DNA of 64,000 nt from IMG/VR virus record IMGVR_UViG_3300017917_001562, positions 1 to 64,000 of that record; one strand, 5' to 3'. This DNA comes from a virus. Shown here piece by piece: positions 18,534 through 63,802 of the stretch (positions within the stretch are counted from its first letter, which is position 1; each line of letters starts with the position of its first letter). The position numbers and the translations under genes are program-made. The notes under the pieces are model-generated. The model searched no databases. It worked only from the letters and a program-made list of their open reading frames with translations, and was not told the DNA's origin.

Positions 18534-18543
18534 TGGATAACTT

Positions 18544-39007: not shown

Positions 39008-40097
39008 CAGCTTCTACTATAGTTTCAACTTCACTGTCAGTTAATTCAGGATATATTGGCAAACTTAAACATTCTGTGCAAAAAGCACTTGCTTGTCTGT
39101 ATAATTCACTGGCATAGTTGATATAAGGATAACCAACAGCATATTCATACAACGGCCTATCATAGTGTACTTTGCTTTCAATACCTGCTCGGCTTAAATG
39201 TAAACGCAGGGCTGACCTATCATTGCATTTGATCACATACTTACTCCACGCATGAACAGTGCCATTTGTAGTCAATGGCACATCTACATATAATTTTAAT
39301 GTTTCGTTATAATAGTCAGCAATTTGTTGTCTACGAGCTTGCCATTTGTTAAAGTATTTTAACTTAACTAACATTTGGGCACAGTCACTTTCGCTCATCT
39401 TGCTGTTAGTACCAGGATTTTCATGGTCTAAAGATTTGCCATTGTCTCTAAGATCTCGTAACAGTTTAGCATCTGCTAAGTTATCTACTAAGACCATACC
39501 ACCGGAACCGTAATTGTTTAAGTTCTTGGTAGGATCAAAACTTAATACACTGACTGTACCCAAGCTACCACTAGGTTGATCTCTATAGCTAGCCCCAAAG
39601 CTCTGTGCCGCATCTTCAATTATTTTAATGTTGTTATTAAAAAATTCAGTTAATAATTTAAATCTATCGTAGTCTACAGTGTTACCAAATAAGTTAGCGT
39701 ACATAATGCCACCTACCCCTGCACCTTTTAATGCATAGTCCATGCTTTCTAAATCTATTAATGCTTGGTCATCTACATCACATAACACAGGTTCGTTACC
39801 GTTTAGCAAAACGGAATTAATTGTAGCTACAAAACTGACAGTGGGTATTAATATCTTTGTGTTTTCAGCAAATAAGAGTTGTTGTGCAAAGATAAGGCCT
39901 TGGGTACAACTGTTAACAGCCACAGCATATCTACGACCGCATCTTAGTGCTATTTGTCTTTCGAATTCTTCAGTGAAATGGCCATCTAGCACTTGTCCAC
40001 TGGCATACACACGATCTGTTGCATCTAACAGTTCGTCTCGTAGATTTTGATATTGTCGCTTAATACCAAAAAAAGGAATTATAATTTTTTCTGCCAA
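38988..40097 (-). CDS. DegT/DnrJ/EryC1/StrS PLP-dependent sugar aminotransferase
   Basis: AVNSCT, IIEDAAQSFG, SFDPTKNL (PLP Lys), LSLPIYPEL. Confidence 0.9.
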   Translation of the reverse strand: MAEKIIIPFFGIKRQYQNLRDELLDATDRVYASGQVLDGHFTEEFERQIALRCGRRYAVAVNSCTQGLIFAQQLLFAENTKILIPTVSFVATINSVLLNGNEPVLCDVDDQALIDLESMDYALKGAGVGGIMYANLFGNTVDYDRFKLLTEFFNNNIKIIEDAAQSFGASYRDQPSGSLGTVSVLSFDPTKNLNNYGSGGMVLVDNLADAKLLRDLRDNGKSLDHENPGTNSKMSESDCAQMLVKLKYFNKWQARRQQIADYYNETLKLYVDVPLTTNGTVHAWSKYVIKCNDRSALRLHLSRAGIESKVHYDRPLYEYAVGYPYINYASELYRQASAFCTECLSLPIYPELTDSEVETIVEAVKDFYY

Positions 40098-41041
40098 TAT
40101 GTACTCGATTTAAACCAATTATAATATCTTTCAAATCCTTCGTCAACATCTACTTTAGGATCATATCCAAAGTCATGACGAGCAGCAGTGATGTTTAATG
40201 CACCGCGGCTTGGGAAATCTTGATCTTTATCGCGAACTTCAATGGTACCTTGTCCGGCAATTTTAACTGCTAGCTTGGCAGCATCTAACAATGTATAACT
40301 ATGGCTTTTGGTTATATTGTAAGTTTTGTTAACTGCTCGATCACTTAAAGTTGCTTGTGCTATACCGCGGGCCGCATCTTCTACATAAGTAAAATCTAAA
40401 GATTCGTTTGCACCATTTACTTTAAGCACACCACCACGCATAGCAGTTAGCATAAACTTGGATACTACGCGATCCTCAACATCATACTCACCATAAACAG
40501 CACTGGGACGAATGATTACATGATCAAAACATCCTCGTCTGGTATAATCTTTAGTTAGCCATTCTCCGGCTAACTTCATAATACCATATTGTCCCTGCGG
40601 GTTACAATTTGCTTGTTCAGATACATCGTCAGTAAAGTCACCGTAGACCATACTACTGCTGATATAAACAAACTTTTTTATTTTATGTATGCGTCCTGCT
40701 TCTAATAAGTTAATTAATCCAGTGGTCATTACTTCACTAGCTAAACTAGGATTGCTGTTAACTACTTTTTGTCTAGGAAAGCTAGCAAGATGAATTACTA
40801 CTTGCGGATGAAATGTCATAAACATATTTTCGACGCTGGTACGATTCGTAATGTCTACAGCATGTATGCTGGCGTTTATTCTACGCTTACGCTCTTGTTT
40901 TAGATAATCTAATTCGTCTTTGGGAATAAATCCGTAGTTAGTAAAAGTATCAATGACATAGCATTGATGCCCCTGTTGTTCTAAAAATCTAACAACATTG
41001 TGTCCAATAAAGCCACCGCCGCCTGTTATGAGTATTCTCAT
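40079..41041 (-). CDS. NAD-dependent nucleotide-sugar epimerase/dehydratase
   Basis: ITGGGGFIG, SSSMVYG, YGIMK (YxxxK), DFTYVED. Confidence 0.9.
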   Translation of the reverse strand: MRILITGGGGFIGHNVVRFLEQQGHQCYVIDTFTNYGFIPKDELDYLKQERKRRINASIHAVDITNRTSVENMFMTFHPQVVIHLASFPRQKVVNSNPSLASEVMTTGLINLLEAGRIHKIKKFVYISSSMVYGDFTDDVSEQANCNPQGQYGIMKLAGEWLTKDYTRRGCFDHVIIRPSAVYGEYDVEDRVVSKFMLTAMRGGVLKVNGANESLDFTYVEDAARGIAQATLSDRAVNKTYNITKSHSYTLLDAAKLAVKIAGQGTIEVRDKDQDFPSRGALNITAARHDFGYDPKVDVDEGFERYYNWFKSSTYWQKKL

Positions 41042-41042
41042 A

Positions 41043-41384
41043 TTATCCCCATTTTAATTTGAAATAAGTAATATCTTCTGCTCGAAGTTTAGCACTTATG
41101 GCAAATTGGTATCCAAATGTTACGAGATCAGCATGTTTGTGCCAGACTGGAGGTTCTATAGCATGTTCCATGATCCATTTACCTGCTTCACTTTGTTGCC
41201 ATTGCCATAACGGTTCTCCTGCGTACAATACAGGATCTTCGACATCGCTCATTTGAAATTTGTGAACTACAATTTCTTTAATTTCTTGTATTTTAACTTG
41301 ACCGTCGACCGTTACTTCGCGGAAACTGTGCTCCAACTTGTAAGGTTCACTAATTAAATCATATTGGTTTTTAGTGTAAGCCAT
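41043..41384 (-). CDS. Small protein with F.LKW C-terminus (dispersed member of the array family)
   Basis: Likely start MAYTKN at 41384, just after the HNH stop; ends EDITYFKLKWG. Confidence 0.65.
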   Translation of the reverse strand: MAYTKNQYDLISEPYKLEHSFREVTVDGQVKIQEIKEIVVHKFQMSDVEDPVLYAGEPLWQWQQSEAGKWIMEHAIEPPVWHKHADLVTFGYQFAISAKLRAEDITYFKLKWG

Positions 41385-41385
41385 A

Positions 41386-41958
41386 TTATATTTCTTTAAT
41401 TTGAAACCCTTTAAAAACACCGCGAGACGGTATTTTCCCATTTCTCATTCTGTTAATAGTTGCATGGGTGTTAGGGATACTAACATTGAATTCTTTTGCA
41501 ATTTCTTTTAATCCCGCCACTATTTTAGTGGAGCCATTAGGATAATAAATTATATATTTTTTTGTATAGGAAAGTAACGATGGATCTATATTTTTAATCC
41601 AACTATTTTCTCCACTGTGCGCTTCTCTATTTTTTTGTATAGTTTCTTGTTTATGAGTTTTACCGAAGAATCCGTTTTTATCACCTGTCCTTGATTTAGC
41701 AGATTCTGACAATCTTCTTTTACCTTCGGGAGTCCAATTTTTTGGTCCTAATAATTTCATATAATTTGCTTCTTCGACGCCTATTTGTTTAGATAACGCC
41801 AAGTAAGCAATATGATCAAATTTATTGCCATATTGTTCATATAATTTTTTATGTGCTTCTGCGTGTTCTTCTATTGTTAGTTTAACTAAATTTTCGGGAT
41901 TATCTAAACCACCCATATGTTTAGGTACAATATGATGTATATGATAAATGGGCTTCAT
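41386..41958 (-). mobile_element. Free-standing HNH homing endonuclease with NUMOD3-like motif
   Basis: HIHHIVPKHMGG.DNPENLVKL..EEH..AH; NGFFGKTHKQET; directly downstream of thyA. Confidence 0.8.
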
Positions 41959-41992
41959 ATTGTATTTAGTCTTTTAGGTGTACCTTTTAATA

Positions 41993-42895
41993 TTAAATAG
42001 CCATTGGTGCTTTAATTGCTTCATGGGATTTATAATCGATCAATTTGATATCTTCCATAGTAAACATAAAAATGTCTTTTATCTCATGATTTAACCATAG
42101 TTTCGGGAGATCAAGAGGTTCTCTGGACAGTTGTTCTTTTACTTGTTCTATATGATTAAGATATATATGTGCGTCTCCTAATACATGTACAAATTCGCCT
42201 ACATCTAATCCGCACACCTGTGCAATCATGTGTGTAAGCAGAGAGTATGATGCAATATTAAATGGAACACCAAGGAAAAGATCTGCACTACGCTGGTACA
42301 TTTGGCAACTCAGCTTATTATCTGCAACATAAAACTGACTGAATACATGACAGGGAGGCAGTGCCATATCGTTTAATTCGCCTGGATTCCAAGCTGTTAA
42401 AATATGCCTACGACCACTGGGATCAGCTTTAATACCCTTAATTAACTCAGTTAATTGATCGACTTCTTTGTTTACTAATTGACTGTGTCCTATTAGTTCT
42501 TTGTCTTTGGTCTGCCAGTGACGCCATTGTACGCCATATACACGACCTAAGTCGCCAGGGTATTGCGGACCTTTGGGAGGAAATTCTTTGTACTTATTAG
42601 TCCAATAAGGTGCTGTGGCATTGGCAGTCCAGATAGTGCTCTTTTCAGAGTTCCTGCTACCATGTAATATCTCTCGCAGGCGTAGTTCATCTCCCGAACC
42701 TTCAATGAACCACAGCAACTCTGACACCACTGATTTCCACGCTAGTTTTTTAGTTGTAACTGCGGGAAAGCCTTTACTTAGATCGTACCGTTGTTGCATA
42801 CCAAAACAACTAATAGTACCTACGCCCGTGCGATCTGTTTTAGTCGTGCCATTATCTAGCACAAATCTTAATGCATTTAAATATTGAGTTTCCAT
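41993..42895 (-). CDS. thyA: Thymidylate synthase
   Basis: DRTGVGT, ELLWFI.G, LGRVYGVQWR, SGRRH, MALPPCH, YQRSADLFLGVPFN, GDAHIYLNH. Confidence 0.97.
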   Translation of the reverse strand: METQYLNALRFVLDNGTTKTDRTGVGTISCFGMQQRYDLSKGFPAVTTKKLAWKSVVSELLWFIEGSGDELRLREILHGSRNSEKSTIWTANATAPYWTNKYKEFPPKGPQYPGDLGRVYGVQWRHWQTKDKELIGHSQLVNKEVDQLTELIKGIKADPSGRRHILTAWNPGELNDMALPPCHVFSQFYVADNKLSCQMYQRSADLFLGVPFNIASYSLLTHMIAQVCGLDVGEFVHVLGDAHIYLNHIEQVKEQLSREPLDLPKLWLNHEIKDIFMFTMEDIKLIDYKSHEAIKAPMAI

Positions 42896-42904
42896 GTGTT
42901 TATT

Positions 42905-43414
42905 TTAGACTAAAGGTCTAAAGATGTCAATGTTTTTATACACTGTCCAATTACATTTTTTATCTAAACTTGGGCAAGCACTGCGAGCTTGAAATAAACT
43001 AAGATATCGCCTCAAATCAATTTGAACATCTGTTCTATATTGGCCTTTGAAATGAGTAATATGCGCTTCGTCTACTAAGTCTTTAGTGTCTAATAGCAGT
43101 TGTGGACCACCTACGATCCATACTGTCTTATCAGGATTGTCTTGGCTTATTTTTTTAATAGCAGCCGAAACATCGCCTCTGATGGTTTTAACACCTGCAT
43201 ACCCAAACAAAGGTCTTGAAGTCACAACATAAGTTGTTCGTCCTGGTAATGGTTTAGGCATTTGAGGATCATCCCAAGTACGCCTACCCATTATAACAAT
43301 TTGGCCTTGTGTTTGTTCTTTAAAATATACTAGATCTTCTTTATGGTGCCATGGCAAGGATCCGTTAAGACCCATGCCGCCCCAATGGTCTACTGCAAAT
43401 ATACTTTTAATCAT
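42905..43414 (-). CDS. folA: Dihydrofolate reductase
   Basis: MG.NGSLPW..EDL.YFK..T..VIMGRRTW..PLPGR..IVGG; adjacent to thyA. Confidence 0.9.
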   Translation of the reverse strand: MIKSIFAVDHWGGMGLNGSLPWHHKEDLVYFKEQTQGQIVIMGRRTWDDPQMPKPLPGRTTYVVTSRPLFGYAGVKTIRGDVSAAIKKISQDNPDKTVWIVGGPQLLLDTKDLVDEAHITHFKGQYRTDVQIDLRRYLSLFQARSACPSLDKKCNWTVYKNIDIFRPLV

Positions 43415-44666: not shown

Positions 44667-44963
44667 TTAGCTTAAATTGTTTTCCCAAGTATTCAATTTG
44701 TCCAAAATCAGCGCAAAATGACTGGCTTCGCCGGGAATTTCAAAAGCCACACACTGTTGCATAGCGATGTGTTTATTTTCTGGATTTTCAACATAAGCAT
44801 CTCCAGCAAAAAATCTTCCGTCGCAGTTTTCATTGACCCAGTCTGTAATTTTTTTAACATTGCATCTGAGATCAAATTGAACTTTAGTAAAATGTGGCGG
44901 GCAATGATCTAGCTGTCTAAGCCCAAACACATTTAAAGGATTAACTTCACCGTACTTTAACAT
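44667..44963 (-). CDS. Hypothetical protein (possibly distant array-family fold)
   Basis: 98 aa; W..EN..GRF..VAFE.PGEASHFAL pattern. Confidence 0.65.
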   Translation of the reverse strand: MLKYGEVNPLNVFGLRQLDHCPPHFTKVQFDLRCNVKKITDWVNENCDGRFFAGDAYVENPENKHIAMQQCVAFEIPGEASHFALILDKLNTWENNLS

Positions 44964-45811: not shown

Positions 45812-45840
45812 ATTATATAGCCAAAACGGTTTTATGTCAA
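45812..45840 (-). promoter_or_regulatory. Consensus sigma70 promoter
   Basis: TTGACA(45840-45835)-17 nt-TATAAT(45817-45812) on the minus strand. Confidence 0.8.
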
Positions 45841-45842
45841 TG

Positions 45843-46130
45843 TTACATCCATTTTAATCTAAACCAATTGGCATCTTCTGGAGATTCAAAAGCTATTTTT
45901 ACGCCTTGAATTTTATATTCACTTTGGCAATTTTCTTTTAACCAATCTCTTTTTTGTTGACATAAATTATCTGTGACCATATGATTGGTAACATGAACAA
46001 CATATCCGGACCCAAGAGCATTGTTTACCAATGTCCACCCCGATACTTCTACCCAAACACTAAAGTCTATTTCGTATTGAACCTGCTCAGCTAGTTGATT
46101 TAGAATGTGTTCTTGTATATTATTGTTCAT
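45843..46130 (-). CDS. Array-family small protein (ends WFRLKWM)
   Basis: WLKENC..IAFESPEDANWFRLKWM; start MNNN at 46130. Confidence 0.7.
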   Translation of the reverse strand: MNNNIQEHILNQLAEQVQYEIDFSVWVEVSGWTLVNNALGSGYVVHVTNHMVTDNLCQQKRDWLKENCQSEYKIQGVKIAFESPEDANWFRLKWM

Positions 46131-46132
46131 TG

Positions 46133-46354
46133 TTAACTCCATCTAAGACAAAAAGCTGTCAGTGTCGGTTTATCGGGCAACACCACAGTCATACCTTGGA
46201 CCTTACTTTTATTTTGTTTACACCACACTTGTAGATCATCGTAGTGTATATTCCAGTATGCTATGTCTGACAGCACAATCAACAATTCGCCGCCTGTTAC
46301 TAGCGTATCAGGAATAATGAATCTTCGTCGGTGACCGTTGTCAAGTAAACTCAT
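46133..46354 (-). CDS. Array-family small protein (ends FCLRWS)
   Basis: ATGA-overlap start at 46354; WCKQN..TLTAFCLRWS. Confidence 0.7.
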   Translation of the reverse strand: MSLLDNGHRRRFIIPDTLVTGGELLIVLSDIAYWNIHYDDLQVWCKQNKSKVQGMTVVLPDKPTLTAFCLRWS

Positions 46355-46710
46355 CTTACTAAGTTTAACATGGTTTGATATTGTTGCCAAAGATCTTGAA
46401 GTCCGGGATGTTGATGTCTAAGCCTAGTTTCTTCTTCTTGCTTATATACAATTTCTTGAATATCTCGCTTTAGGTCTACTGCATGTTGCTTTTCTTCCAA
46501 CCATTGATCGTGTTCCATTAAAGCACGAAAACGATCTTCAGGCATGTGAATTTCTACACAAGTAAGATCCTCATATGGATTATTGTTATAAATGTTTGGA
46601 TCACTGGCCCATATTTTATAATCAACTCGTCTTACTCGTCTATGCATTTTTGTACTAGGCACTACATAAGCATCATATTTGTAACAAAACTCTGTAAAAT
46701 CTTTTGTCAT
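46351..46710 (-). CDS. Hypothetical protein (non-family member inside the array)
   Basis: 119 aa, no LRW end. Confidence 0.7.
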   Translation of the reverse strand: MTKDFTEFCYKYDAYVVPSTKMHRRVRRVDYKIWASDPNIYNNNPYEDLTCVEIHMPEDRFRALMEHDQWLEEKQHAVDLKRDIQEIVYKQEEETRLRHQHPGLQDLWQQYQTMLNLVR

Positions 46711-46711
46711 T

Positions 46712-46996
46712 TTAACTCCATTTTAATAACCATAAAGCTATATCGTCTTTATGTGTAAATCCCCACCATTCTTGTTGATTATGAAAGTCGGAACTGTAAG
46801 ACAGAATTTGGCCGCGGCAATGCAAATTACACCAAGTCCAGTATTCGTTGGAAAATTTAACAGGTTTAACACAAACAAACCATTTACTGGGCTTGTGCGG
46901 TTTAACTTGTTCTGGCACCCAAAGTCCACTATCATCGTCACCAAGTCCTGGGCGAATATCGTTCCAAAATTCTTTGAACTGCTTTCGATTTATCAT
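46712..46996 (-). CDS. Array-family small protein (ends WLLKWS)
   Basis: Start MINRK at the junction repeat; WCNLHC..WGFTHKDDIALWLLKWS. Confidence 0.7.
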   Translation of the reverse strand: MINRKQFKEFWNDIRPGLGDDDSGLWVPEQVKPHKPSKWFVCVKPVKFSNEYWTWCNLHCRGQILSYSSDFHNQQEWWGFTHKDDIALWLLKWS

Positions 46997-47205
46997 GACC
47001 ACTTCAACAATGTTAACAAGGCTTTTTTCTCGTCTGCGAAATGCCAAGTAGTACCATAAGTGGGGCTCCTTAGATTCATATCATATGTACGCCACCAGTC
47101 TTGTTTAAACTCACCTACATAAGTTTCTAACCACTCATTAAATGATACATCTGGTACTAATGAACGATGAAGACCCTTGAGTTGACTTTGATGTATTTTA
47201 TTCAT
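46993..47205 (-). CDS. Array-family small protein (ends LLKWS)
   Basis: WLETYVG..WHFADEKKALLTLLKWS. Confidence 0.7.
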   Translation of the reverse strand: MNKIHQSQLKGLHRSLVPDVSFNEWLETYVGEFKQDWWRTYDMNLRSPTYGTTWHFADEKKALLTLLKWS

Positions 47206-47207
47206 AC

Positions 47208-47438
47208 TTACGCCCATCGCAGTTTCCATATTACATATAGTTCTGGAGTCAAGTATAAAGCAGTATTACTGTCGGGATCATCTCGCATTGGTCGCCATAA
47301 ATCAGGATCTTGCACTCGGATCCACTCAAACATACCCTCGGGGGTCCTAAATCCTTCAAAGCTTGGATCATCAAAACAATATGTTTTGTATCCGTGTGTA
47401 AAAAGTTCGTAACGACCGTTGCGTGGCAAATGACTCAT
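47208..47438 (-). CDS. Array-family small protein (ends WKLRWA)
   Basis: ATGA-overlap start MSHLP. Confidence 0.7.
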   Translation of the reverse strand: MSHLPRNGRYELFTHGYKTYCFDDPSFEGFRTPEGMFEWIRVQDPDLWRPMRDDPDSNTALYLTPELYVIWKLRWA

Positions 47439-47647
47439 CGGTTTCCTTTTAAAATAAACCACACAGCATCCTGCTCACGCTCAAACCACACTGTTCGACT
47501 ACCGTAGTAGAGATAGAACTTACCAGGCGAATCCATTAACTGCAATTCACGCTTGAGTTGGGCATAGTTCCAATTTAGGTTGATTGTGCGTAGAACAGGA
47601 TGCCAGTGCTGTTGCCGAACCTTTTTATCTTTGTTCCAATATTTCAT
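47435..47647 (-). CDS. Array-family small protein (ends WFILKGNR)
   Basis: VWFEREQDAVWFILK motif. Confidence 0.7.
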   Translation of the reverse strand: MKYWNKDKKVRQQHWHPVLRTINLNWNYAQLKRELQLMDSPGKFYLYYGSRTVWFEREQDAVWFILKGNR

Positions 47648-47871
47648 GACCACCTTAATATAAACCAACTCATATCTTTACGAGCATCCGGATAATCTAA
47701 AAAATAAAAATTAATTAAATCGTGTGTAATAGTATTACCATCACTGTGATATTGATTAGTAATGTAATGTGGACAGTTTTTCTTTGCCCATTGAATAGCA
47801 CTATACAAATCAAGTTTACTACGGTCTACTGTTATGTAGTTATCAGTAATCTTCATATGCCAGTTGTCCAT
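47644..47871 (-). CDS. Array-family small protein (ends WFILRWS)
   Basis: WAKKNC..FYF..KDMSWFILRWS. Confidence 0.7.
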   Translation of the reverse strand: MDNWHMKITDNYITVDRSKLDLYSAIQWAKKNCPHYITNQYHSDGNTITHDLINFYFLDYPDARKDMSWFILRWS

Positions 47872-48083
47872 CAACTCCACCTTAACAAAAATGCTGTATA
47901 ATCTTCTTCATGCTCAAATACCGCAGTAACAAACTTGTTGTCTTTGTCCTCGACCATTTTGCAGCCAAACTCCTGTAACCATTTTTTTCGGCTTTCTTCT
48001 AGTCCCAACGACTGAACACCAAGTGTTTCACGCCACGCACGACGAAACATTGAATGATGCTTTTTTAAATCTACTTCAATCAT
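47871..48083 (-). CDS. Array-family small protein (ends FLLRWS)
   Basis: WLQEFG..VFEHEEDYTAFLLRWS. Confidence 0.7.
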   Translation of the reverse strand: MIEVDLKKHHSMFRRAWRETLGVQSLGLEESRKKWLQEFGCKMVEDKDNKFVTAVFEHEEDYTAFLLRWS

Positions 48084-48732
48084 GACCACCTCAATGCTAG
48101 CATTGTAGCATGATTTGCATATTTTCGTCTAACAAATTGATAAATAAAAATGCGAGTCGCGATGCGTCAACATCCACCCGCCCTAACAGTTGAAAAGGAA
48201 CTATCAGCATGAATATTTATTCCCCGGCACGACCCCCATCTGGGTATTATGTTTACGCATATATAAGATCAAAAGATTCGAAAACAGGTAAAGCAGGGAC
48301 TCCGTATTACATTGGTAAAGGCAAGGGCAATCGAGCCACTCGACGTCACGGAAAAAACCCTATTCCAGATTTTGATTTCATAGCAATATGTGAAGAAAAT
48401 TTAACTGAAATTGGTGCATTAGCGATTGAACGATTCCTTATACGTGTTTGGGGGAGAAAAGATATCGGTACCGGAATTTTGTTAAACAGAACAGACGGCG
48501 GGGATGGGACATCGGGTAGATCAGCAGAGTCAATCTGCACCCAAACTGCGCCACCAAGGTCTACCCATCTTGGATCATTATGATCTACAATTAAAGGGCC
48601 CACAGGCCACCTTACTTTGATAACAACACCAGGAACAAACCTCCACCAAAGTTTTTGCCAAATGTTTAATCCGCAAGGCAAATATCTGCCAGACGGCAAT
48701 TGAAATAAACTTTTAATTTCCCACTTAGCCAT
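48080..48732 (-). pseudogene. Array-family gene disrupted by an inverted endonuclease fragment
   Basis: N-terminal part [15 protein letters not shown] (48732 to about 48519); orphan out-of-frame tail VRRKYANHATMLALRWS* (48133-48080) carrying a perfect junction repeat. Confidence 0.65.
48140..48520 (+). mobile_element. Inverted insertion: late-promoter motif, leader and truncated GIY-YIG homing endonuclease (ORF 48209..48583)
   Basis: YYVYAY..PYYIGKG.GNR..E..LI...[12 protein letters not shown] catalytic domain; after TSGR the ORF reads the antisense of the disrupted gene; ATAAATA at 48140, AAGGA SD. Confidence 0.75.
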
Positions 48733-49133
48733 TATGAATATTTCAATGCTATCATTACGGCATCTTGCTCATTGTTAGTTGCTACAAACACTTTATCCTC
48801 ACCGCCTAGTTCGTTTACTGTCCATTCCCAATCAGTAGAAGGCTCACACATAACACGATGAAACTCCCAAACAGCATTTTCACCTAAAGCACGAGCAGGC
48901 CAAAAATAATGTTTTGTATCTTCTCGCACGGTCCACCCAAACGGTTGTTCTAAGTTAAAAAACTTGTTAGGATCAACGATAACAATATGTTTAAAATTTC
49001 TAAAAATATCTTTGATACGAGTAGCACGGACATTAACGGTTTGTTCATACCATGCCTTATACTCACGCTCTGCTTTTGTATAACCAGTTGTGCGAGTAAG
49101 ATACCAATCTTTGATATTGTCGAATAAAATCAT
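48732..49133 (-). CDS. Array-family protein (ends IALKYS)
   Basis: 133 aa; FVATNNEQDAVMIALKYS. Confidence 0.7.
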   Translation of the reverse strand: MILFDNIKDWYLTRTTGYTKAEREYKAWYEQTVNVRATRIKDIFRNFKHIVIVDPNKFFNLEQPFGWTVREDTKHYFWPARALGENAVWEFHRVMCEPSTDWEWTVNELGGEDKVFVATNNEQDAVMIALKYS

Positions 49134-49136
49134 GGT

Positions 49137-49376
49137 TTATTCTGCTAATACTTCAAACAGTTCAGCATACTGTGTTTCGGGTTCATCAACGAATCCAGTA
49201 TAGACCCATACTCTGCGACAATAAACTTTTTTAAGCCACACCCAACGGTTGTTAATAGTTTTATGCGGCAACAACACAAATGTTTCAACCCAGTCGTGTT
49301 CTACCGCGGTTATGTCGCCTATGTTTGGGATAAACATTGCTCCTCTAACTATTTCTTTAAATAGGGAAAAACTCAT
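49137..49376 (-). CDS. Hypothetical protein (non-family member inside the array)
   Basis: F.LLP.KT....WVWLK..Y motif, similar to 60864..61121. Confidence 0.6.
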   Translation of the reverse strand: MSFSLFKEIVRGAMFIPNIGDITAVEHDWVETFVLLPHKTINNRWVWLKKVYCRRVWVYTGFVDEPETQYAELFEVLAE

Positions 49377-49594
49377 GCCCACCTTAACGCTAATAAAATG
49401 TAAATTTTTTCATGAACATCAAATACATTATAGTTGATATGCCATTTTTCGTCAATGTTTTGAAACCATTGTTTATCTTCCTGCTCACAGAAAGATGTTC
49501 TTAACCAAATACTAACTTCTTTTTTACAAGATATAGTATACCAAGATTCATTATTAACTATAGCCTTAGTCCTTACTTTGAAGTTAGATTTCAT
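49373..49594 (-). CDS. Array-family small protein (ends LALRWA)
   Basis: Junction-coupled start MKSNF. Confidence 0.7.
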   Translation of the reverse strand: MKSNFKVRTKAIVNNESWYTISCKKEVSIWLRTSFCEQEDKQWFQNIDEKWHINYNVFDVHEKIYILLALRWA

Positions 49595-49839
49595 ACCCAC
49601 CTCAACGCAAACATAGTATATTTTTTCTCATCTACCACTGCAACCTGCACAACTTCGTATCCGTGCCTACCATATATATCTTGTTTAGGACATAGATCTA
49701 ATCTGAGCCCGGCTGTTTGTTCAATATGATACTTAAACCCAAGCATACGGTCCTCTCCAGAACTGGGCCAATCTGGGTCATATTCCATATAACATTTGTT
49801 TAGCAAACGATTTACGGATTTTGTATCTATAAATCTCAT
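49591..49839 (-). CDS. Array-family small protein (ends FALRWV)
   Basis: VVDEKKYTMFALRWV. Confidence 0.7.
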   Translation of the reverse strand: MRFIDTKSVNRLLNKCYMEYDPDWPSSGEDRMLGFKYHIEQTAGLRLDLCPKQDIYGRHGYEVVQVAVVDEKKYTMFALRWV

Positions 49840-50048
49840 GAGCTCCACCTCAATGCAAACATAGTTGCATCCTTGCTATTGCGGAAGTAATAATCCACAC
49901 CCTTCATTGAGGGCACTCGATTCCAGCGACCTTTAAACGGGCCCATGTTTTCGCCTAGCCATTCCTCAATCTTGTAATGCCCGGCGTGATCCATGGGCAT
50001 AGAGATAGGAATCTTTGCTGGCCAAATTTCTTTCTTTAGTTGTCTCAT
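49836..50048 (-). CDS. Array-family small protein (ends FALRWSS)
   Basis: WLGENMG..YYFRNSKDATMFALRWSS. Confidence 0.7.
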   Translation of the reverse strand: MRQLKKEIWPAKIPISMPMDHAGHYKIEEWLGENMGPFKGRWNRVPSMKGVDYYFRNSKDATMFALRWSS

Positions 50049-50335
50049 GACCACCTCAACTCTAAGAATGTTACCATTTCCGGAGGAACTAAGAATACAC
50101 TTTCAAACCATAGGTACCATGTGAACTTTTCTCGTGAGAAATGTTCGTTCATCCACACAACCTCTGGACCTAATACATCTACGCAAACATAATCTTCATA
50201 TCCCATGGGAGGGGCACGGCCAGTATCAACACGCGGCGGAATCAGGAATGTTGATTCATATTCGGCCAACCATTTAGCGTGAGCGGCTAGTTCGTTATCC
50301 GGTATCAGAGCAACACTTTGGAAATTTACTTTCAC
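50045..50335 (-). CDS. Array-family small protein (ends FLELRWS)
   Basis: GTG start at the junction; WMNEHF..MVTFLELRWS. Confidence 0.7.
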   Translation of the reverse strand: MKVNFQSVALIPDNELAAHAKWLAEYESTFLIPPRVDTGRAPPMGYEDYVCVDVLGPEVVWMNEHFSREKFTWYLWFESVFLVPPEMVTFLELRWS

Positions 50336-50565
50336 GACCACCTCAACATAAACCAAGTATACGCTTGTTCATCATAAAAGTCAATATACCTATCACCGTA
50401 ACCGCTTAACGGATTTATGGGTTTGGCTATCCAAAAGTTTGCCGACCAGTCCATGAGAGCATGATTGATTTCTTCCTCGCCAAAACTATCTGGTAAAAAG
50501 TTATACCACCATCTTGGGATTTCAGATGGATGGCGATCTTCTTCAAATATCTTTATTCTAATCAT
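50332..50565 (-). CDS. Array-family small protein (ends FMLRWS)
   Basis: IDFYDEQAYTWFMLRWS. Confidence 0.7.
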   Translation of the reverse strand: MIRIKIFEEDRHPSEIPRWWYNFLPDSFGEEEINHALMDWSANFWIAKPINPLSGYGDRYIDFYDEQAYTWFMLRWS

Positions 50566-50771
50566 GACCACCTCAACACAAACATCATATAATCATCTAC
50601 ACGGCGAAATTCAAATACACCTTCACTAACATAACGCCAGTTCTGTTCCTTGAATCGTCCTCTACACCATTCCATCGCAGGCAACCAGCCCCAGTGCTCA
50701 TACTCCTTGTGTGCAGGTTGAGGCACACTTGCAATAATCCAACTGTTGATAGGATTTCTTGGCAATTTCAT
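50562..50771 (-). CDS. Array-family small protein (ends FVLRWS)
   Basis: EWCRGRF..FEFRRVDDYMMFVLRWS. Confidence 0.7.
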   Translation of the reverse strand: MKLPRNPINSWIIASVPQPAHKEYEHWGWLPAMEWCRGRFKEQNWRYVSEGVFEFRRVDDYMMFVLRWS

Positions 50772-51022
50772 GACCACCTCAGAATAAACATACTAGCGTC
50801 TTTTTCTTTTTCAAACATCCAGATGCTACCTCGACCTTGATGGTTACCTTGTAAGTTTTCTCTGCACCATTTTTTGATTTCGTATATCTGCGTCTCGTGC
50901 ATCCTTGCGGGCCACTTTATCTCAACCTTTGTATAGCCTAGTTTAATCATCATGTCGCACATGATTTCCCAGTCTGTTTCTTCCTGGAGGGTTTTTGCAA
51001 GGTCTTGTTTTATTATTGTCAT
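50768..51022 (-). CDS. Array-family small protein (ends FILRWS)
   Basis: WCRENL..WMFEKEKDASMFILRWS. Confidence 0.7.
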   Translation of the reverse strand: MTIIKQDLAKTLQEETDWEIMCDMMIKLGYTKVEIKWPARMHETQIYEIKKWCRENLQGNHQGRGSIWMFEKEKDASMFILRWS

Positions 51023-51240
51023 GACCACCTCAACATAAACAAAGTAGCATGTGCGGGATCAGAAAACCACATTACATATCCAGAGCCGGGTTCTAGTCGC
51101 CAGTAGTGTTCGCTAGCTGGTTTTCCATATTGACAGTTATTAGGACTACCAAAAGTTTTTAAACACCATGCCCACCAAACAGGCAGGCCTTGTTGATTAT
51201 ATACATGTCTATGTTTCATGGGTACAATTACAATATTCAT
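51019..51240 (-). CDS. Array-family small protein (ends FMLRWS)
   Basis: WCLKTFG..MWFSDPAHATLFMLRWS. Confidence 0.7.
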   Translation of the reverse strand: MNIVIVPMKHRHVYNQQGLPVWWAWCLKTFGSPNNCQYGKPASEHYWRLEPGSGYVMWFSDPAHATLFMLRWS

Positions 51241-51482
51241 GACCACCTCAACGCAAATAACATAGCCTTTTTTTCGTCTACGATAGAGATCATAGTATCA
51301 CCTAACCTTGCGCTATACACTCCCCACTCATCGCCCGCTTCAGGCTCAATATCAATGCCGTCAGGCCAACTATTTTTTAACCAACGGCCACCGGGTCCTA
51401 CATTGTTGTATAACCAATGTTCTAACTCTACAAACTGTATCCGGTGTTTGCTCATAATGGTAGTAGCATCAAAGTTAATCAT
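51237..51482 (-). CDS. Array-family small protein (ends FALRWS)
   Basis: WLYNNVG..IVDEKKAMLFALRWS. Confidence 0.7.
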   Translation of the reverse strand: MINFDATTIMSKHRIQFVELEHWLYNNVGPGGRWLKNSWPDGIDIEPEAGDEWGVYSARLGDTMISIVDEKKAMLFALRWS

Positions 51483-51727
51483 GACCACCTCAGCGTTGTA
51501 AGCATCATGTCTTGCTCAAATTCAAAATAAAATCGGCCGGTTGATTCACAAAAACTATATCGGCCATGGCTGGGATAATTGTTACACCAGTTTACAATAG
51601 CTGCTTCTTTAACGAGCCATTCTAAAGTACCAGTATCGTAACTATCGAACTCTTCCTTATTCCAAAAGTTAGTAGAGTCTACAACATATTTGAAATTTTC
51701 TATGTCTAAGTTGGCTATTTTCTTCAC
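51479..51727 (-). CDS. Array-family small protein (ends TTLRWS)
   Basis: GTG start; WCNNY..FYFEFEQDMMLTTLRWS. Confidence 0.7.
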   Translation of the reverse strand: MKKIANLDIENFKYVVDSTNFWNKEEFDSYDTGTLEWLVKEAAIVNWCNNYPSHGRYSFCESTGRFYFEFEQDMMLTTLRWS

Positions 51728-51936
51728 ACCCACCTCAACAGTGCAAACATTCTATCTTTTTCATTTGTAATATACCACAAGTCAACACCATTAAGTGTGC
51801 CCTGGTATTCTGTTTCTATAGAATTTTTTTCACACCACTTATGAAAGTTTATTCTTTGCTGTGAGCTAACAGTAAAGCCCCGCGGATCACCTACTAATTT
51901 TACTCTGCCCTTTTCTGCAAAAACTTTAGTGGTCAT
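51724..51936 (-). CDS. Array-family small protein (ends FALLRWV)
   Basis: WCEKN..WYITNEKDRMFALLRWV. Confidence 0.7.
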   Translation of the reverse strand: MTTKVFAEKGRVKLVGDPRGFTVSSQQRINFHKWCEKNSIETEYQGTLNGVDLWYITNEKDRMFALLRWV

Positions 51937-52151
51937 GCCCACCTCAGTGCAAACCACTCTTTGTTTTCTCTAACTTGAAATATGTATCCGTTAGAGCCTG
52001 AACTTAGAAGAAAGTATTCTACTTTGTTTTCGCGCATCCAACCGTAGATGTCAAGCCACTCCTGAAATGTGCGAACAAGGTAAGTAGGGTAACCTGCCCA
52101 ACCTGGGTAGCTAGTAGATTCGACTTTCATATTCATTGTGTTATCAATCAT
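51933..52151 (-). CDS. Array-family small protein (ends FALRWA)
   Basis: WMRENKV..EWFALRWA; start could be a downstream ATG. Confidence 0.7.
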   Translation of the reverse strand: MIDNTMNMKVESTSYPGWAGYPTYLVRTFQEWLDIYGWMRENKVEYFLLSSGSNGYIFQVRENKEWFALRWA

Positions 52152-52482
52152 GAAAATCGTAATCGTAGCAGTGTCTAATTTCGTGTCCTAAATTTGAAGT
52201 GCTGGTGTTGGTACCTGTAATTACAGTACACTGATCACCTCGCCAAACAGCACAACCAACAATTCTATTTTTACCAAATCTACCATTGGTGCTTTTATCA
52301 CAGATTTGTTGCAGCTCTTGGTCAGACACTTGACGCCAAGTAATAGTTCTTACTCTTGTTTGTGATTTAGCAGTACTGATGTGTTCGGCGTTGTATTCCC
52401 ATGCCTTAACGGGGTTGACAGGTTGAGCACTACAACCAGATACTGCTGCAACAATCGCAAAAACTAAAGACATTTTTTTCAT
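52144..52482 (-). CDS. Predicted lipoprotein with HExxH motif
   Basis: MKKMSLVFAIVAAVSG-C lipobox; LGHEIRHC. Confidence 0.7.
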   Translation of the reverse strand: MKKMSLVFAIVAAVSGCSAQPVNPVKAWEYNAEHISTAKSQTRVRTITWRQVSDQELQQICDKSTNGRFGKNRIVGCAVWRGDQCTVITGTNTSTSNLGHEIRHCYDYDFHD

Positions 52483-52483
52483 G

Positions 52484-52708
52484 TTAATTCCACCTTAACA
52501 AAAACATTGTCAAATCTTTTTGATTTTTAAATTCAAACATATCGTAGGCAATCCTGTAACCACAATGATTTTCCCTGCACCATTCTACCATTTCAGCTAT
52601 AGGATAGCCTAAATAATGACCTTCTTGATCAAGTATAAATTCATCCACCGAAATTTTTACAGCAAGCCTAAGCCTTGGATCTGGTTCAATGGCGTAGGCT
52701 TTGCTCAT
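52484..52708 (-). CDS. Array-family small protein (ends FLLRWN), first cassette
   Basis: TAATG overlap with the vWA gene; WCRENH..FEFKNQKDLTMFLLRWN. Confidence 0.7.
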   Translation of the reverse strand: MSKAYAIEPDPRLRLAVKISVDEFILDQEGHYLGYPIAEMVEWCRENHCGYRIAYDMFEFKNQKDLTMFLLRWN

Positions 52709-53985
52709 TATGCTTTGGCCAATTCCTTGGCTCGTTCATAAATTGCCCAAACACCAAAGGGAGGTTCTGCTTGCTCGTTGCCTTTGATAATGAATACAGT
52801 ATCGCAGTATTCGCTGTCACCCCACTCACCAAAAGGCATACCGTCAGTGAACATGATAAACTTCTTAGGTTGAATATCATTTTCCTTCATGTATTCCCAA
52901 TTAGCCATAAAGTCAGTACCACCACCACCTTGGGGCTCATAGGTAAGAATGTCCTCTAGTGATTCTGAACTGTAAACTTGGTGATTATACACTGCGGTGT
53001 CAAAACTCCACACTTGAATCTTGTACTCGTCATAGGCTTCCATAATGCCTTTGATCTCAGCCATAAAAGCCTTGATGTCTTCCTCGCCAATAGAACCCGA
53101 AGTGTCAATGGCAATACAAACATCAATCTGTTGACCCGGGATCATACCAGGCATAACAGCATCCAAGTGCCAGCTACGGCGTGAAGGGCGCAACCAAGTA
53201 AAGTCGTTTTTAACGGTGCTTTGGATTTGTTGTTCCAACAGCTCACGCCAGTTAACTACAGGCCTAGTCAAGTCTTTGATCAGACGCTTAACACCTGACG
53301 GCAAATTGCTGGCGCCTGTGGCCTGTGCGGCCTGTAGCAGTGCTTCGCGGATTTCGTCTTTGATGGCCTGTCGTTCTTCTTTGCTGAGACGGGGACGACC
53401 TTTGCCTTCTTTCTCGTCACCATCTTCGTCGCTACTGCCGTTGTCACCATCACCGTCCAAGTGCTCGTCTAACAGTTGATCCATCAAATCGCTGATGTCA
53501 ATTTTTTCTGCATTTTCATAAAGGTCGTCGTAGACTTCTTCAGCACTCCAACCTTTGTATTTGACATCATACAGGCAAGGGGTAATTTTGTCACCAATCC
53601 GTTGCTCAATCAAATCACTGTTAACACAATAGTCAGCGGCACAATTAAACAAACGGCGATCGCGGTCGCCATTACGACCCATATGGTCATAGACATTGTG
53701 CAGAACTTCGTGGCCAAACAAGAACTCAAGTTCTTTGGGTTTCAGTTTATTAACGAACTCAGTGTTGTAATAAAATTTACGACCATCGGTTGCAGCAGTA
53801 CCAAGCCAACTGTCTGCATTAACCAATTGCAGTCTGGTAGCAAGGTTACCAAAGAATGGTGCCTTAAGCAAGAGACCGATACGAGCAGTAGTCAATTTTT
53901 CACGCACTGCACGATCCAAAGCAGGATCGGTATTGTCAGTGAGACGACCTGCGATGTCTTTTTGTTTACTGTCTGATGTAGCCAT
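52708..53985 (-). CDS. Metallopeptidase-like (HExxH) plus vWA domain protein (DUF2201-type)
   Basis: TAATDG, HEVLH, N.AADY.VN; MIDAS DTSGS, GGGTDF, FTDG. Confidence 0.85.
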   Translation of the reverse strand: MATSDSKQKDIAGRLTDNTDPALDRAVREKLTTARIGLLLKAPFFGNLATRLQLVNADSWLGTAATDGRKFYYNTEFVNKLKPKELEFLFGHEVLHNVYDHMGRNGDRDRRLFNCAADYCVNSDLIEQRIGDKITPCLYDVKYKGWSAEEVYDDLYENAEKIDISDLMDQLLDEHLDGDGDNGSSDEDGDEKEGKGRPRLSKEERQAIKDEIREALLQAAQATGASNLPSGVKRLIKDLTRPVVNWRELLEQQIQSTVKNDFTWLRPSRRSWHLDAVMPGMIPGQQIDVCIAIDTSGSIGEEDIKAFMAEIKGIMEAYDEYKIQVWSFDTAVYNHQVYSSESLEDILTYEPQGGGGTDFMANWEYMKENDIQPKKFIMFTDGMPFGEWGDSEYCDTVFIIKGNEQAEPPFGVWAIYERAKELAKA

Positions 53986-54010: not shown

Positions 54011-54039
54011 ATTATAACACACTTGCGAATTTTTGTCAT
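54011..54039 (-). promoter_or_regulatory. sigma70-type promoter upstream of the vWA gene and array
   Basis: ATGACA-17 nt (AAAATTCGCAAGTGTGT)-TATAAT, followed by AAGGAG SD. Confidence 0.7.
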
Positions 54040-54052: not shown

Positions 54053-54346
54053 TTACAACCATTTAAGTGTAAACAGTTCTAGTTCTTGATTTGTTTTAAG
54101 ATAAATTAATGGAGTATCGTATTTAATATCCTCTAATCTATAAGACCAAGATTGGTTCCTAGTAAATTTTGCATGACTTAAATGAAGGTTGAGTTGGACA
54201 CCCATACCCCATATTTCATTGCACCAATGACACCATTCTACAAATTTAGGAATTCTAGAGTCAAAGGGTTCGTGCAGTTCAATCCTGTATGCAAAATGCC
54301 CATATCCTCCATGACGGCGATCTAATTTTACAACCTTGGCGGGCAT
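54053..54346 (-). CDS. Array-family small protein between the AAA and vWA genes (ends FTLKWL)
   Basis: WCNEIWG..IYLKTNQELELFTLKWL. Confidence 0.7.
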   Translation of the reverse strand: MPAKVVKLDRRHGGYGHFAYRIELHEPFDSRIPKFVEWCHWCNEIWGMGVQLNLHLSHAKFTRNQSWSYRLEDIKYDTPLIYLKTNQELELFTLKWL

Positions 54347-54409: not shown

Positions 54410-55519
54410 TTACTTGCTGTTGGCGGCTACAATGTATTTGCCAAATCGCTTATGGAACTCGTCGAAATGTTTCAACTTGCCAGGAATGAAAGGCAGATTG
54501 TAGGTAGTCAGTGCAACACGAGCACCCATAACAGTCAATTCGGTAGTGAAATTGTCCATCATGTAACGGAAGAAGAAATCTGCCATACTGTTAAATTTCT
54601 CGTCAGGCTTGCCGTTATTTTTTAGCACATGATCCTGAAGTTCATAGCAGAGGTTCACAGTTAGTGAGTACATGGCTGAAATTTCTTTGACCTTAAGATC
54701 AGTGACTTTGCCGTCAAGAATGTCAATAGGCTTAGGCAACTGACCTGCAACCTTGCGGTGCGCCATAAACTTAACTGCAACACCTTCGCCCACAGCACCT
54801 GAAATCAAGTCAGTAAGTTCGCTGTCAGTGCAGTCATTGTCCTCCAACAGTTCACTGACAAAAGTCCACGAACGAGGAGTAGCGAACGCACGGCTTGAAC
54901 TACGGGGGTCAAAGTCGTAAAGGTCTTGTTTAGCAAAACCAATATAACCAATCACATCTGAACTGATGCGGTTAATGGTAGCCCATTGCTCCCACGATTC
55001 GTGATCAACTCGCATCTCCAAGTGAACGAAGCGGTTAGCCAACGGAGCAGGCATACGATAAGTAACGCCTTTATCAGTTTCACGGTTACCTGCGGCAATC
55101 ACAACCACATTGTCAGGCAGTGTATACTTGCCAATACGGCGGTTCAAAACCAGCTGATAAGCTGCGGCCTGGATGCTGGGTGCAGCACTGTTCATTTCAT
55201 CAAGGAACAAAACAACCACAGGATACTGTTTGGCCAGTTCTTCACTGGGCAAGTCGATTGGGGGAGCCCAATCCATCAAACCATTGTCTTTGTTGTAATA
55301 AGGAATACCACGCAGGTCAGTGGGTTCCATCTGTGCCAAACGAAGGTCAATCATAAGACCGCCCATTTCTTCAGCAATACTAGCAACCAGTTCGGACTTG
55401 CCGATGCCTGGAGGACCCCACAGGAACAGGGGTCGTTTTTTCTTAAAACACTTGGTAATGGCACGACGAGCGGTCAGTGCGGTTACAGTGCGATTTTCAG
55501 TAATTGAGTCTTTCGACAT
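54410..55519 (-). CDS. MoxR-like AAA+ ATPase
   Basis: Walker A GPPGIGKS, DLRG.P, Walker B LFLDEMN, AAGN, LANRF, TPRSW. Confidence 0.88.
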   Translation of the reverse strand: MSKDSITENRTVTALTARRAITKCFKKKRPLFLWGPPGIGKSELVASIAEEMGGLMIDLRLAQMEPTDLRGIPYYNKDNGLMDWAPPIDLPSEELAKQYPVVVLFLDEMNSAAPSIQAAAYQLVLNRRIGKYTLPDNVVVIAAGNRETDKGVTYRMPAPLANRFVHLEMRVDHESWEQWATINRISSDVIGYIGFAKQDLYDFDPRSSSRAFATPRSWTFVSELLEDNDCTDSELTDLISGAVGEGVAVKFMAHRKVAGQLPKPIDILDGKVTDLKVKEISAMYSLTVNLCYELQDHVLKNNGKPDEKFNSMADFFFRYMMDNFTTELTVMGARVALTTYNLPFIPGKLKHFDEFHKRFGKYIVAANSK

Positions 55520-60864: not shown

Positions 60865-61121
60865 TAATGATTCCTTTTTAACTGCCATATTATGTATTCG
60901 GTCTTTTCAATCCAGTAGTGTTTTACTATTGGTTCACCTGGACCGGTAATCCATCTTTCGCCATGGTACGCATACTTACCCCACAATGGTTTTCCTGTTA
61001 AATAACACCGCTGTGGACGCCAACATAGTTTTAAATCCCAGTATCCTGCTTGTTTCAATCCCCAGTCTTCACTAGGTGGTGATGCTTGTGGACTCATATC
61101 TAACATACGCATAATCTCCAT
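60864..61121 (-). CDS. Hypothetical protein
   Basis: 85 aa; W.P.RC..TGK.LW.K.AY; ends YIIWQLKRNH. Confidence 0.65.
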   Translation of the reverse strand: MEIMRMLDMSPQASPPSEDWGLKQAGYWDLKLCWRPQRCYLTGKPLWGKYAYHGERWITGPGEPIVKHYWIEKTEYIIWQLKRNH

Positions 61122-61996: not shown

Positions 61997-62022
61997 TTTA
62001 TTCCTTGCTGATAATTTTTATT

Positions 62023-63756: not shown

Positions 63757-63760
63757 CAAG

Positions 63761-63794: not shown

Positions 63795-63802
63795 TTTGCT
63801 GG

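Follow-up and report, generated by a model that had tools for sequence, protein, structure and literature searches.

The window analyzed here is a 64,000-nucleotide (nt) stretch of viral DNA (positions 1 to 64,000 of IMG/VR record IMGVR_UViG_3300017917_001562), and its main feature is an array of 26 small minus-strand open reading frames (ORFs) at 45843-52708, most of which encode members of a single protein family joined by a conserved junction. The window constitutes the first 64 kb of one 108,581-bp viral contig with an estimated completeness of 31% and a guanine plus cytosine content of 33-43%. The VWA/metallopeptidase-like gene that precedes the array (52708-53985) shared 89% to 52% identity with genes on 80 IMG/VR contigs, three of which are complete or near-complete genomes of 338-383 kb. 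Its best matches in cultured phages were in Sinorhizobium phage Phosso (45% identity) and Pseudomonas phage PA5oct (42%). Based on these relatives of the VWA gene, we assign the source to a fragment of an uncultured jumbo myovirus-like phage. The array itself had no megablast match in GenBank phages, the sole relative retrieved in a metagenome scan was 70% identical, and a search for related loci in viral contigs seeded with member 1 found none.

The 26 ORFs comprise 22 family members, three non-members, and one gene split by an insert. Against a profile hidden Markov model (HMM) built from them, the 22 members scored E-values of 4.6e-19 to 5.6e-6, and the best non-member ORF anywhere in the contig scored 0.056. 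A preliminary description had listed 26 tandem ORFs, and all are present, with two corrections. ORF 48346-48732 is a chimera, in which the 5' part of the split 126-amino acid (aa) gene makes up the first 75 codons (48511-48732). Most of the GTG starts given for the ORFs ("MVM...") are artefacts, and translation likely begins 6 nt downstream, at the ATG within the ATGA overlap. Its placement of most ORFs in one family held for the 22 members and failed for 52144-52482, 49137-49376, and 46351-46710. Several ORFs were said to be exactly 70 aa long, which is true of five members. Twenty-two were said to end in L[RK][WY]x; after start correction, L[RK][WY] followed by 1-2 residues closes 21 of them, the exception being 47435-47647 with LKGNR. 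The features of the locus are as follows.

54410-55519, minus strand: MoxR-like AAA+ ATPase gene, upstream neighbour (Pfam AAA / AAA_3 / AAA_5, weak bpMoxR)
54056-54346, minus strand: extra single-copy conserved member, 97 aa, ends F-T-L-K-W-L (fam2 HMM E 4e-4)
54011-54039, minus strand: sigma-70-like promoter, 11/12, extended -10, before the VWA-like gene; probable operon start (consensus match only)
52708-53985, minus strand: DUF2201_N (HExxH metallopeptidase-like) + DUF2201 VWA-like protein (Pfam E 1.7e-41 and 2.6e-16)
52484-52708, minus strand: member 1, 74 aa, ...LRWN (HMM E 9e-17)
52144-52482, minus strand: non-member, lipoprotein-like, 112 aa, HEIRH motif (weak LPAM_1 / lipoprotein PHROG matches; 53% homologs in related loci L003 and L004)
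51933-52151, minus strand: member 2, 72 aa, ...LRWA, start uncertain (HMM E 5e-13)
51724-51936, minus strand: member 3, 70 aa, ...LRWV (HMM E 2e-15)
51479-51727, minus strand: member 4, 82 aa, GTG start in GTGA overlap (HMM E 8e-15)
51237-51482, minus strand: member 5, 81 aa (HMM E 3e-11)
51019-51240, minus strand: member 6, 73 aa (HMM E 2e-12)
50768-51022, minus strand: member 7, 84 aa, head remnant like capsid spine helix (...LQEETDWEIMCDMM...) (HMM E 2e-17; modelled with AlphaFold)
50562-50771, minus strand: member 8, 69 aa (HMM E 2e-13)
50332-50565, minus strand: member 9, 77 aa (HMM E 5e-13)
50045-50335, minus strand: member 10, 96 aa, GTG start (HMM E 8e-7)
49836-50048, minus strand: member 11, 70 aa, ...LRWSS, most canonical (HMM E 5e-19)
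49591-49839, minus strand: member 12, 82 aa (HMM E 9e-12)
49373-49594, minus strand: member 13, 73 aa (HMM E 1e-10)
49137-49376, minus strand: non-member, 79 aa (phrog_18133, unknown function, E 9e-5; homologs in L003, L004, L005)
48732-49133, minus strand: member 14, 133 aa, tail ALKYS, most divergent (HMM E 6e-6)
48511-48732, minus strand: split 126-aa array gene, 5' part, codons 1-75 (tblastn against intact L004:16121-16570 and L005:13314-13691)
48134-48510, no strand: inserted DNA in place of ~34 codons of the split gene (comparison with intact homologs)
48209-48583, plus strand: opposite-strand ORF, 124 aa, weak GIY-YIG-like motif (phrog_15526 E 8e-16)
48083-48133, minus strand: split gene, 3' remnant, ...ATMLALRWS, last 17 codons (comparison with intact homologs)
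47871-48083, minus strand: member 15, 70 aa (HMM E 4e-14)
47644-47871, minus strand: member 16, 75 aa (HMM E 3e-13)
47435-47647, minus strand: member 17, 70 aa, tail ILKGNR, Trp lost, AAGGA Shine-Dalgarno kept (HMM E 2e-9)
47208-47438, minus strand: member 18, 76 aa, CTG CGA TGG tail, outside standard junction (HMM E 3e-9)
46993-47205, minus strand: member 19, 70 aa, ...LKWS (HMM E 2e-14)
46712-46996, minus strand: member 20, 94 aa, ...LKWS (HMM E 3e-13)
46351-46710, minus strand: non-member, 119 aa (no family match; homologs in L003, L004, L005)
46133-46354, minus strand: member 21, 73 aa (HMM E 4e-10)
45843-46130, minus strand: member 22, 95 aa, ...LKWM, last array gene, head like capsid spine helix (HMM E 4e-15)
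45812-45840, minus strand: perfect sigma-70 consensus promoter (TTGACA-17-TATAAT) right behind the array, where the next transcription unit starts (promoter scan)

Each member consists of a variable N-terminal head of 15-80 aa and a constant C-terminal beta-alpha-beta-beta-alpha module of ~45-55 aa, in which a W-[CL]-x-E-N helix leads through a Gly loop and an aromatic hairpin to E-x-D-A-x-x-F-x-L-[RK]-W. Conservation in the 22-member alignment spans ~45 residues, from the Trp of W-[CL]-x-E-N to the final F-x-L-[RK]-W, and W52, L81, and W83 are invariant or nearly so. The last 42 residues were detectably similar in 64/231 member pairs (E<0.01) vs 0/231 for the N-terminal parts, in agreement with the earlier remark that the N-terminal halves look unrelated. 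AlphaFold models of member 7 (predicted local distance difference test score, pLDDT, 77.5) and of P0154, a longer family relative (pLDDT 79.0), had this C-terminal fold in common after poorly defined strands or a long helix. The proposal of one paralogous family with a constant C-terminal module is thus upheld by a fold shared by both models well beyond the last four residues.

The family also remained without a name, as first described. Apart from head matches to capsid protein, the window members and 150 representatives had no match to the constant module in Pfam-A, PHROGs v4, or NCBIfam 20, and the profile did not map the family to a characterised protein. Sequence searches of the PDB with profiles A2 and A3 gave chance matches only (E >= 0.4). 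Foldseek against the PDB and VIA-align with the two models recovered only generic two-layer alpha/beta domains (ACT, RRM, HPr-like) with a best Z of 6.2, against a background of many unrelated two-layer domains at Z 5-6 and Foldseek PDB E-values of at least 0.12; a ferredoxin-like, ACT or RRM-type alpha+beta sandwich is a candidate assignment. The best matches in a viral structure library were uncharacterised proteins of uncultured Caudovirales (probability up to 1.0), and for these models proteins of this kind from uncultured phages are the sole specific structural matches. The ESM Atlas contained only unnamed viral clusters, the nearest named cluster having Gp23 in 13% of its members. No longer fused forms (315-2000 aa) were found, which is weak evidence, and literature searches found no description of the family. 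A reading of the members as DNA mimics was dropped because their isoelectric points range from 4.6 to 10.0.

The junction TTGAGGTGGTCATGA or a variant of it occurs at most gene boundaries, and its consensus codons, TTG AGG TGG TCA TGA, read L-R-W-S-stop. Each gene's stop overlaps an ATG (or GTG) 5 nt after GAGG, and the junction combines the ATGA stop/start overlap with an extended Shine-Dalgarno (GAGGUGGUC) that ends five bases short of the following start. Apart from one G-U pair, GAGGTGGTC is complementary to what we take to be the anti-Shine-Dalgarno at the 3' end of 16S rRNA. AGG encodes the tail Arg in 15/17 cases, whereas its share of Arg codons is 7.9% across the contig's long ORFs and 14% in the remaining parts of the members. 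TCA encodes 9/14 terminal Ser residues (vs 13.6%), and all 12 copies of GAGGTGG in 108.6 kb fall in the array on the coding strand. The two codon biases and this confinement show nucleotide-level selection at the junction. Arrays of relatives use the same junction. In 80 further loci from other phages, AGG was found in 219/297 tail Arg codons, and 295/487 junctions were ATGA/GTGA overlaps, with 59 more of the TAATG/TGATG type.

The motif is constrained at the protein level, too. Tail Leu codons vary (TTG 10, TTA 7, CTG 4, CTT 1), member 22 keeps LKW despite having no coupled gene after it, and member 18 keeps L-R-W as an uncoupled CTG CGA TGG. L[KR]W is likewise kept inside two-domain fusion proteins, and a family member in Phosso keeps the motif with CGT for Arg. 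From these patterns L[RK]W is evidently a protein-level feature as well as a nucleotide signal, and the terminal Ser, Ala, or Val appears to be largely dictated by the ATGA overlap. The tail is probably best described as the end of a helix co-opted as a translational coupling signal. F-x-L-[RK]-W had originally been described as a tag; a free protein tag does not fit a stretch whose last four to five codons double as the Shine-Dalgarno and start of the next gene, making the terminal Ser and AGG nucleotide-level features. The accompanying idea of docking through the common tail found no support.

Array content differs among related phages. The five closest relatives, with 89% VWA identity, and related locus L025 (74%) have an array behind the VWA gene, and most others do not. 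Array size varies, with 22, about 20, about 18, 9, and 9 copies. Flanking genes share 67-92% identity with relatives, and array members at most 64%; member order is not collinear with relatives, and four window members had no counterpart. Related loci L003 and L004 share ~95% nt identity in most common segments and differ by at least four whole-cassette insertions, deletions, or replacements. Eight of the ten homology breakpoints between them fall inside the junction, and in one example an extra cassette in L004 is bordered on both sides by TTGAGATGGGCATGA. Junctions of the window share up to 15-18 nt of exact identity. Pooled over 12 orthologous L003/L004 cassettes, the ratio of nonsynonymous to synonymous substitution rates (dN/dS) was 0.30 in the heads, 0.13 in the constant module, and 0.09 in the remaining ORFs of these loci. 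Purifying selection acts on head and module alike, as expected of real genes. What had been called a hyper-diversified family fits old paralogs that turn over as whole cassettes, and the diversity is best attributed to old paralogy and whole-cassette exchange and not to current hypermutation. Synonymous divergence (dS) between L003 and L004 was 0.08-0.10 inside the arrays (about 6900-14300 and 11200-18700) and 0.22 in other ORFs of at least 100 codons. The lower array dS suggests recent lateral exchange of array segments between these two loci.

Some heads resemble the major capsid protein. P0154 is 74% identical to member 7 and has a longer head; it and a second family relative, P0159, passed the Pfam Gp23 family (PF07068) with 24.9 and 27.7 bits (gathering cut-off 24.4 bits), aligned over profile positions 136-217. 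Members 7 (50768-51022) and 22 (45843-46130) had no match to Gp23, and their capsid-like heads are reduced to a helix remnant; the member 22 head matched related capsid proteins at BLAST E 0.02-0.05. Among the 150 representatives, eight matched Gp23 and three matched "major head protein" PHROGs. When 252 family proteins were compared with all ORFs of at least 80 aa in the 338-kb relative and the contig, capsid protein was the sole repeatedly significant non-family target. A profile of the capsid-headed subfamily aligned to related capsid proteins with an hhalign probability of 95.9% (E 5e-9), compared with 0.2% (E 0.36) for the C-terminal module profile alone.

By alignment to T4 gp23, two capsid segments are used: residues 96-128, the conserved VQPM region, and residues 253-313, presumably the E-loop strand plus spine helix of the HK97 fold. 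The Gol peptide, which we take to span gp23 residues 93-122, has its neighbourhood in the first of these. Both kinds of head occur in single arrays (L137 at 5075-5569 and 5992-6339; L110, L126, L180, L184). No HK97-fold entry appeared among the Foldseek or VIA results. The candidate explanation that the whole family, constant module included, is a shrunken capsid protein was set aside as less likely because the collinear hhalign alignment was carried by the head, and since the constant module alone does not align to capsid we treat the capsid-headed proteins as putative fusions. We infer that in one sub-lineage, represented here by members 7 and 22, the displayed peptides come from the major capsid protein.

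Among 1.84 billion cluster representatives searched with the profile, 1583 matched at E<=1e-3, each representing a 50%-identity cluster. The 150 matches listed were all 42-179 aa long with the module nearly always C-terminal, and included a few tandem two-module proteins. In the contig, family matches were confined to one locus. The 338-kb relative (G001) had nine clear matches in one locus and two marginal ones (E 0.003-0.008) elsewhere. Seeding IMG/VR with one subfamily gave >295 confirmed loci, of which 80 were kept, and 65/80 kept viral loci contained 2-18 members within 12 kb. Recurrent neighbours in the kept loci included a UvsW-like helicase, an exonuclease, and a protein with a (primase-like) Toprim domain; we read such surroundings as probable replication or early regions of T4-like phages. 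In cultured phages, members were found only in Phosso, which carries at least two, all annotated as hypothetical. Searches of GenBank phages by tblastn found no match to member 7 and only a weak Phosso match to P0013, which HMMs confirmed as a true member. A tRNA-rich region of Phosso (locus L103) that contains a family member also carries an annotated tRNA with anticodon CTA ("tRNA-Pyl") at 2949-3024 (PV764938.1 446731-446806), which would be of the amber-suppressor type.

Promoter-like sites lie on both sides of the unit, an 11/12 match before the VWA gene and a perfect consensus after the last array gene; the -35 TTGACA of the latter is also present at this place in L004 and L005. The stop of the VWA gene overlaps the start of the first array gene (TAATG). 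Scans found no convincing terminator between the two promoters, and no promoter or stem-loop terminator sites at individual junctions.

We propose that the locus is a hyperplastic, translationally coupled jumbo-phage operon consisting of a sigma-70-like promoter, the DUF2201 VWA gene, and 26 abutting small genes, 22 of which are old paralogs of the single unnamed family. The junction does three jobs. It encodes the end of the last helix, and with its Shine-Dalgarno and ATGA it would allow the cistrons to be translated from one mRNA by termination-reinitiation, which we propose because the Shine-Dalgarno lies five bases before an ATG that overlaps the stop. Its 13-18 nt of exact identity between cassettes also provide the site for adding, deleting, and swapping whole genes, and swaps there keep the frame, the ribosome-binding site, and the start. 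Translational coupling would yield early, roughly equimolar production, with the constant module as a stable scaffold and the head setting the target. Because the members lack a catalytic motif and only the heads set them apart from one another, we read them as potential non-enzymatic binding proteins, made early as a repertoire for host takeover or counter-defence and reshuffled between phages, a role for which we judge the chances to be roughly balanced.

Several points weigh against this proposal. The binder or counter-defence role is drawn by analogy with the small early genes that lie in variable regions of T4-type phages, and early expression, coupling, and binding are all predictions from sequence. 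The fold, matching only generic two-layer alpha/beta domains, is uninformative on function. A dN/dS below 1 speaks against a fast arms race via point substitutions. Any homologous recombination between diverged paralogs would put breakpoints in the junction, so that their position shows where exchange resolves and not that the junction evolved for exchange. Promoter and terminator scans were overall not enriched over shuffles, and the operon boundaries hence rest on two strong consensus matches.

Other functions can be weighed against the same data. The members could be clients, adaptors, or regulators of the MoxR-like AAA+ and DUF2201 VWA-metallopeptidase pair, which we consider unlikely, as we do the corresponding mechanism in which the module would dock on the VWA metal site, perhaps via the acidic E-x-D-A loop, and the head would bring a target for remodelling or cleavage. 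The array is translationally linked to the VWA-like gene, whose VWA-like domain keeps the D-x-S-x-S motif (D294, S296, and S298 invariant). The extra member at 54056-54346, outside the array and between the MoxR-like and VWA-like genes, was related to the array family with an hhalign probability of 87% and had orthologs at that position in 25/77 related loci, array-less ones included. In Phosso, whose VWA protein is 45% identical, the gene directly after the VWA gene is also a member (fam2 E 1e-9). However, 51/80 relatives of the VWA gene had no member within 10 kb, only 6/80 independent family arrays had both MoxR and VWA genes within 6 kb (MoxR-like only in two more), and the VWA gene occurs in 799 GenBank phage records, yet the family is nearly absent from cultured phages. 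A general MoxR-VWA linkage was dropped, and since most arrays elsewhere have no such pair nearby the link appears limited to this clade. A second reading, in our estimate improbable, is that the heads mimic conserved virion-protein epitopes, chiefly those of the major capsid protein, on a constant mini-scaffold. Such early-made decoys would occupy capsid-recognising host sensors (of the Lit/Gol, CapRel, Avs7, or Dsr1 types) ahead of the genuine capsid protein, and the junction would serve as a plug-in site for decoy trading. Capsid protein is the only recurrent recognisable source of heads, with two separate segments that can coexist in one array. The 96-128 segment lies in the first quarter of gp23, which is described as its most conserved part and holds the 29-residue EF-Tu-binding, Lit-triggering Gol peptide (PMC3014915), and capsid proteins trigger CapRel directly (PMC9712102) and Avs7/Dsr1 together with EF-Tu (PMC13581612). 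Against this, capsid-like heads occur in only 2/22 window members, both as a helix remnant, most heads match nothing, and detection is biased to the best-conserved capsid segments. A Gol-like peptide would be equally able to trigger or to block a sensor.

Capsid-headed members could instead be weapons against rival phages or satellites, either inhibiting the assembly of co-infecting relatives in a dominant-negative way or excluding these relatives. Two capsid elements are represented among such heads, the conserved VQPM segment and the E-loop strand with the spine helix, and such elements of the HK97 fold make subunit contacts. Cassette turnover between close relatives is fast. We nevertheless find this function quite unlikely: the phage's own capsid would have to be spared, the array looks early-expressed and assembly is late, and most heads are not capsid-like. 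The genes might also be mostly dispensable, selfish cassettes that persist by junction-based duplication and transfer with little benefit to the phage. Copy number varies freely among relatives, an array gene has been split without visible harm to the operon, and array dS lies below that of the flanks, fitting recent lateral exchange. The purifying selection on both halves (dN/dS 0.13-0.30), the intact reading frames throughout, and the persistence of the family across large evolutionary distances make this very unlikely. That the L-R-W-S ending is a mere by-product of a repeated ribosome-binding and start signal on otherwise unrelated ORFs would agree with the AGG and TCA codon bias and the exact junction repeats. 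We regard it as hardly credible, given ~45 conserved residues upstream of the junction with varying codons, profile E-values down to 5e-19, L[KR]W kept without coupling and inside two-domain fusions, and the CGT codon in Phosso.

The proposed coupled operon can be compared with several known systems. In T4-type phages, promoter-early stem-loop (PeSL) regulatory cassettes mediate modular shuffling of hyperplastic regions (Arbiol et al. 2010, PMC2839356; Comeau et al. 2014, PMC4122927). In both cases a short conserved expression signal flanks small genes, which for PeSLs are non-essential and early, and the indel and replacement breakpoints of close relatives fall in the signal. PeSLs consist of a sigma-70-like early promoter and a stem-loop terminator, whereas the array signal is a translational one of coding tail, Shine-Dalgarno, and ATGA, lies inside the upstream gene, and joins cassettes that are all paralogs of one family, in what would be one coupled polycistron. 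Like an integron, the array is a row of promoterless small cassettes behind one upstream promoter, with whole-cassette gain and loss at conserved boundaries. Unlike in integrons, these boundaries are in-frame coding and ribosome-binding sequence and the cassettes are mutually homologous; an integrase or attC-type site did not turn up in the array, although no search was aimed at either. Exchange presumably proceeds by the phage's general recombination at 13-18 nt of microhomology. The multigene families (MGF) of African swine fever virus and poxvirus "gene accordions" show tandem paralog expansion with strain-variable copy number, generally linked to host interaction. The array shares the expansion and variable copy number, but its members are far smaller, translationally coupled by prediction, and built from a constant C-terminal module with unrelated heads.

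With the Gol/Lit, CapRel, and Avs7/Dsr1 systems the link is that heads of some members are homologous to gp23 96-128, the Gol neighbourhood, or 253-313. Those systems sense full capsid protein late in infection, whereas the array has short capsid fragments on a separate small domain in a seemingly early operon. MoxR AAA+ and VWA proteins form pairs such as RavA-ViaA, CbbQ-CbbO, and NorQ-NorD, and in phages there are pairs of the DUF2201 type. In this clade the corresponding genes are genomic neighbours of the family with one conserved member between them, but the linkage appears limited to the clade and the family has no sequence relation to known MoxR/VWA clients.

With at least 1583 clusters at 50% identity and arrays in hundreds of uncultured viral contigs, this is a large family with almost no cultured representative. 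A single 15-nt stretch combines a protein end, a ribosome-binding site, a stop/start overlap, and a recombination point, so that the shuffling of regulatory cassettes described for T4-type phages has a counterpart in translation. That capsid fragments are repeatedly fused to a constant module was unexpected, and it connects the family to capsid-sensing bacterial immunity in a concrete way that can be tested. Should the members prove to be target-specific binders, the arrays would hold a wealth of small natural inhibitors of host or defence proteins.

The split array gene at 48083-48732 has its halves separated by an insert of ~377 nt, and the 3' remnant (48083-48133) still supplies the coupling junction to member 15. 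The opposite-strand ORF 48209-48583 had no homolog in related loci and no match in Pfam or NCBIfam; its motif, Y-V-Y ... Y-Y-I-G-K-G, was read from the sequence, and GIY-YIG chains in the PDB matched weakly (E 0.15-0.25). Two more homing-endonuclease-like ORFs are located at 41386-41958 (HNH plus NUMOD3) and 63136-63861 (NUMOD3), which suggests that mobile nucleases are frequent in this genome. The non-member at 52144-52482 has the look of a small lipoprotein, with a signal peptide with a Cys lipobox, and a terminal HEIRH (HExxH) motif. Genes near the array at 38988-43414 and 61121-62871 include a DegT-type aminotransferase and an NAD-dependent epimerase (sugar modification), thymidylate synthase, DHFR, and two radical-SAM genes. 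Finally, a conserved single-copy 98-aa gene at 44667-44963, 55-72% identical in relatives, has a family-like W-V-N-E-N-C ... F-E ... F-A-L pattern with a different C-terminal extension and marginal HMM scores (E 0.045-0.15), and its product may be a distant relative of the array family.

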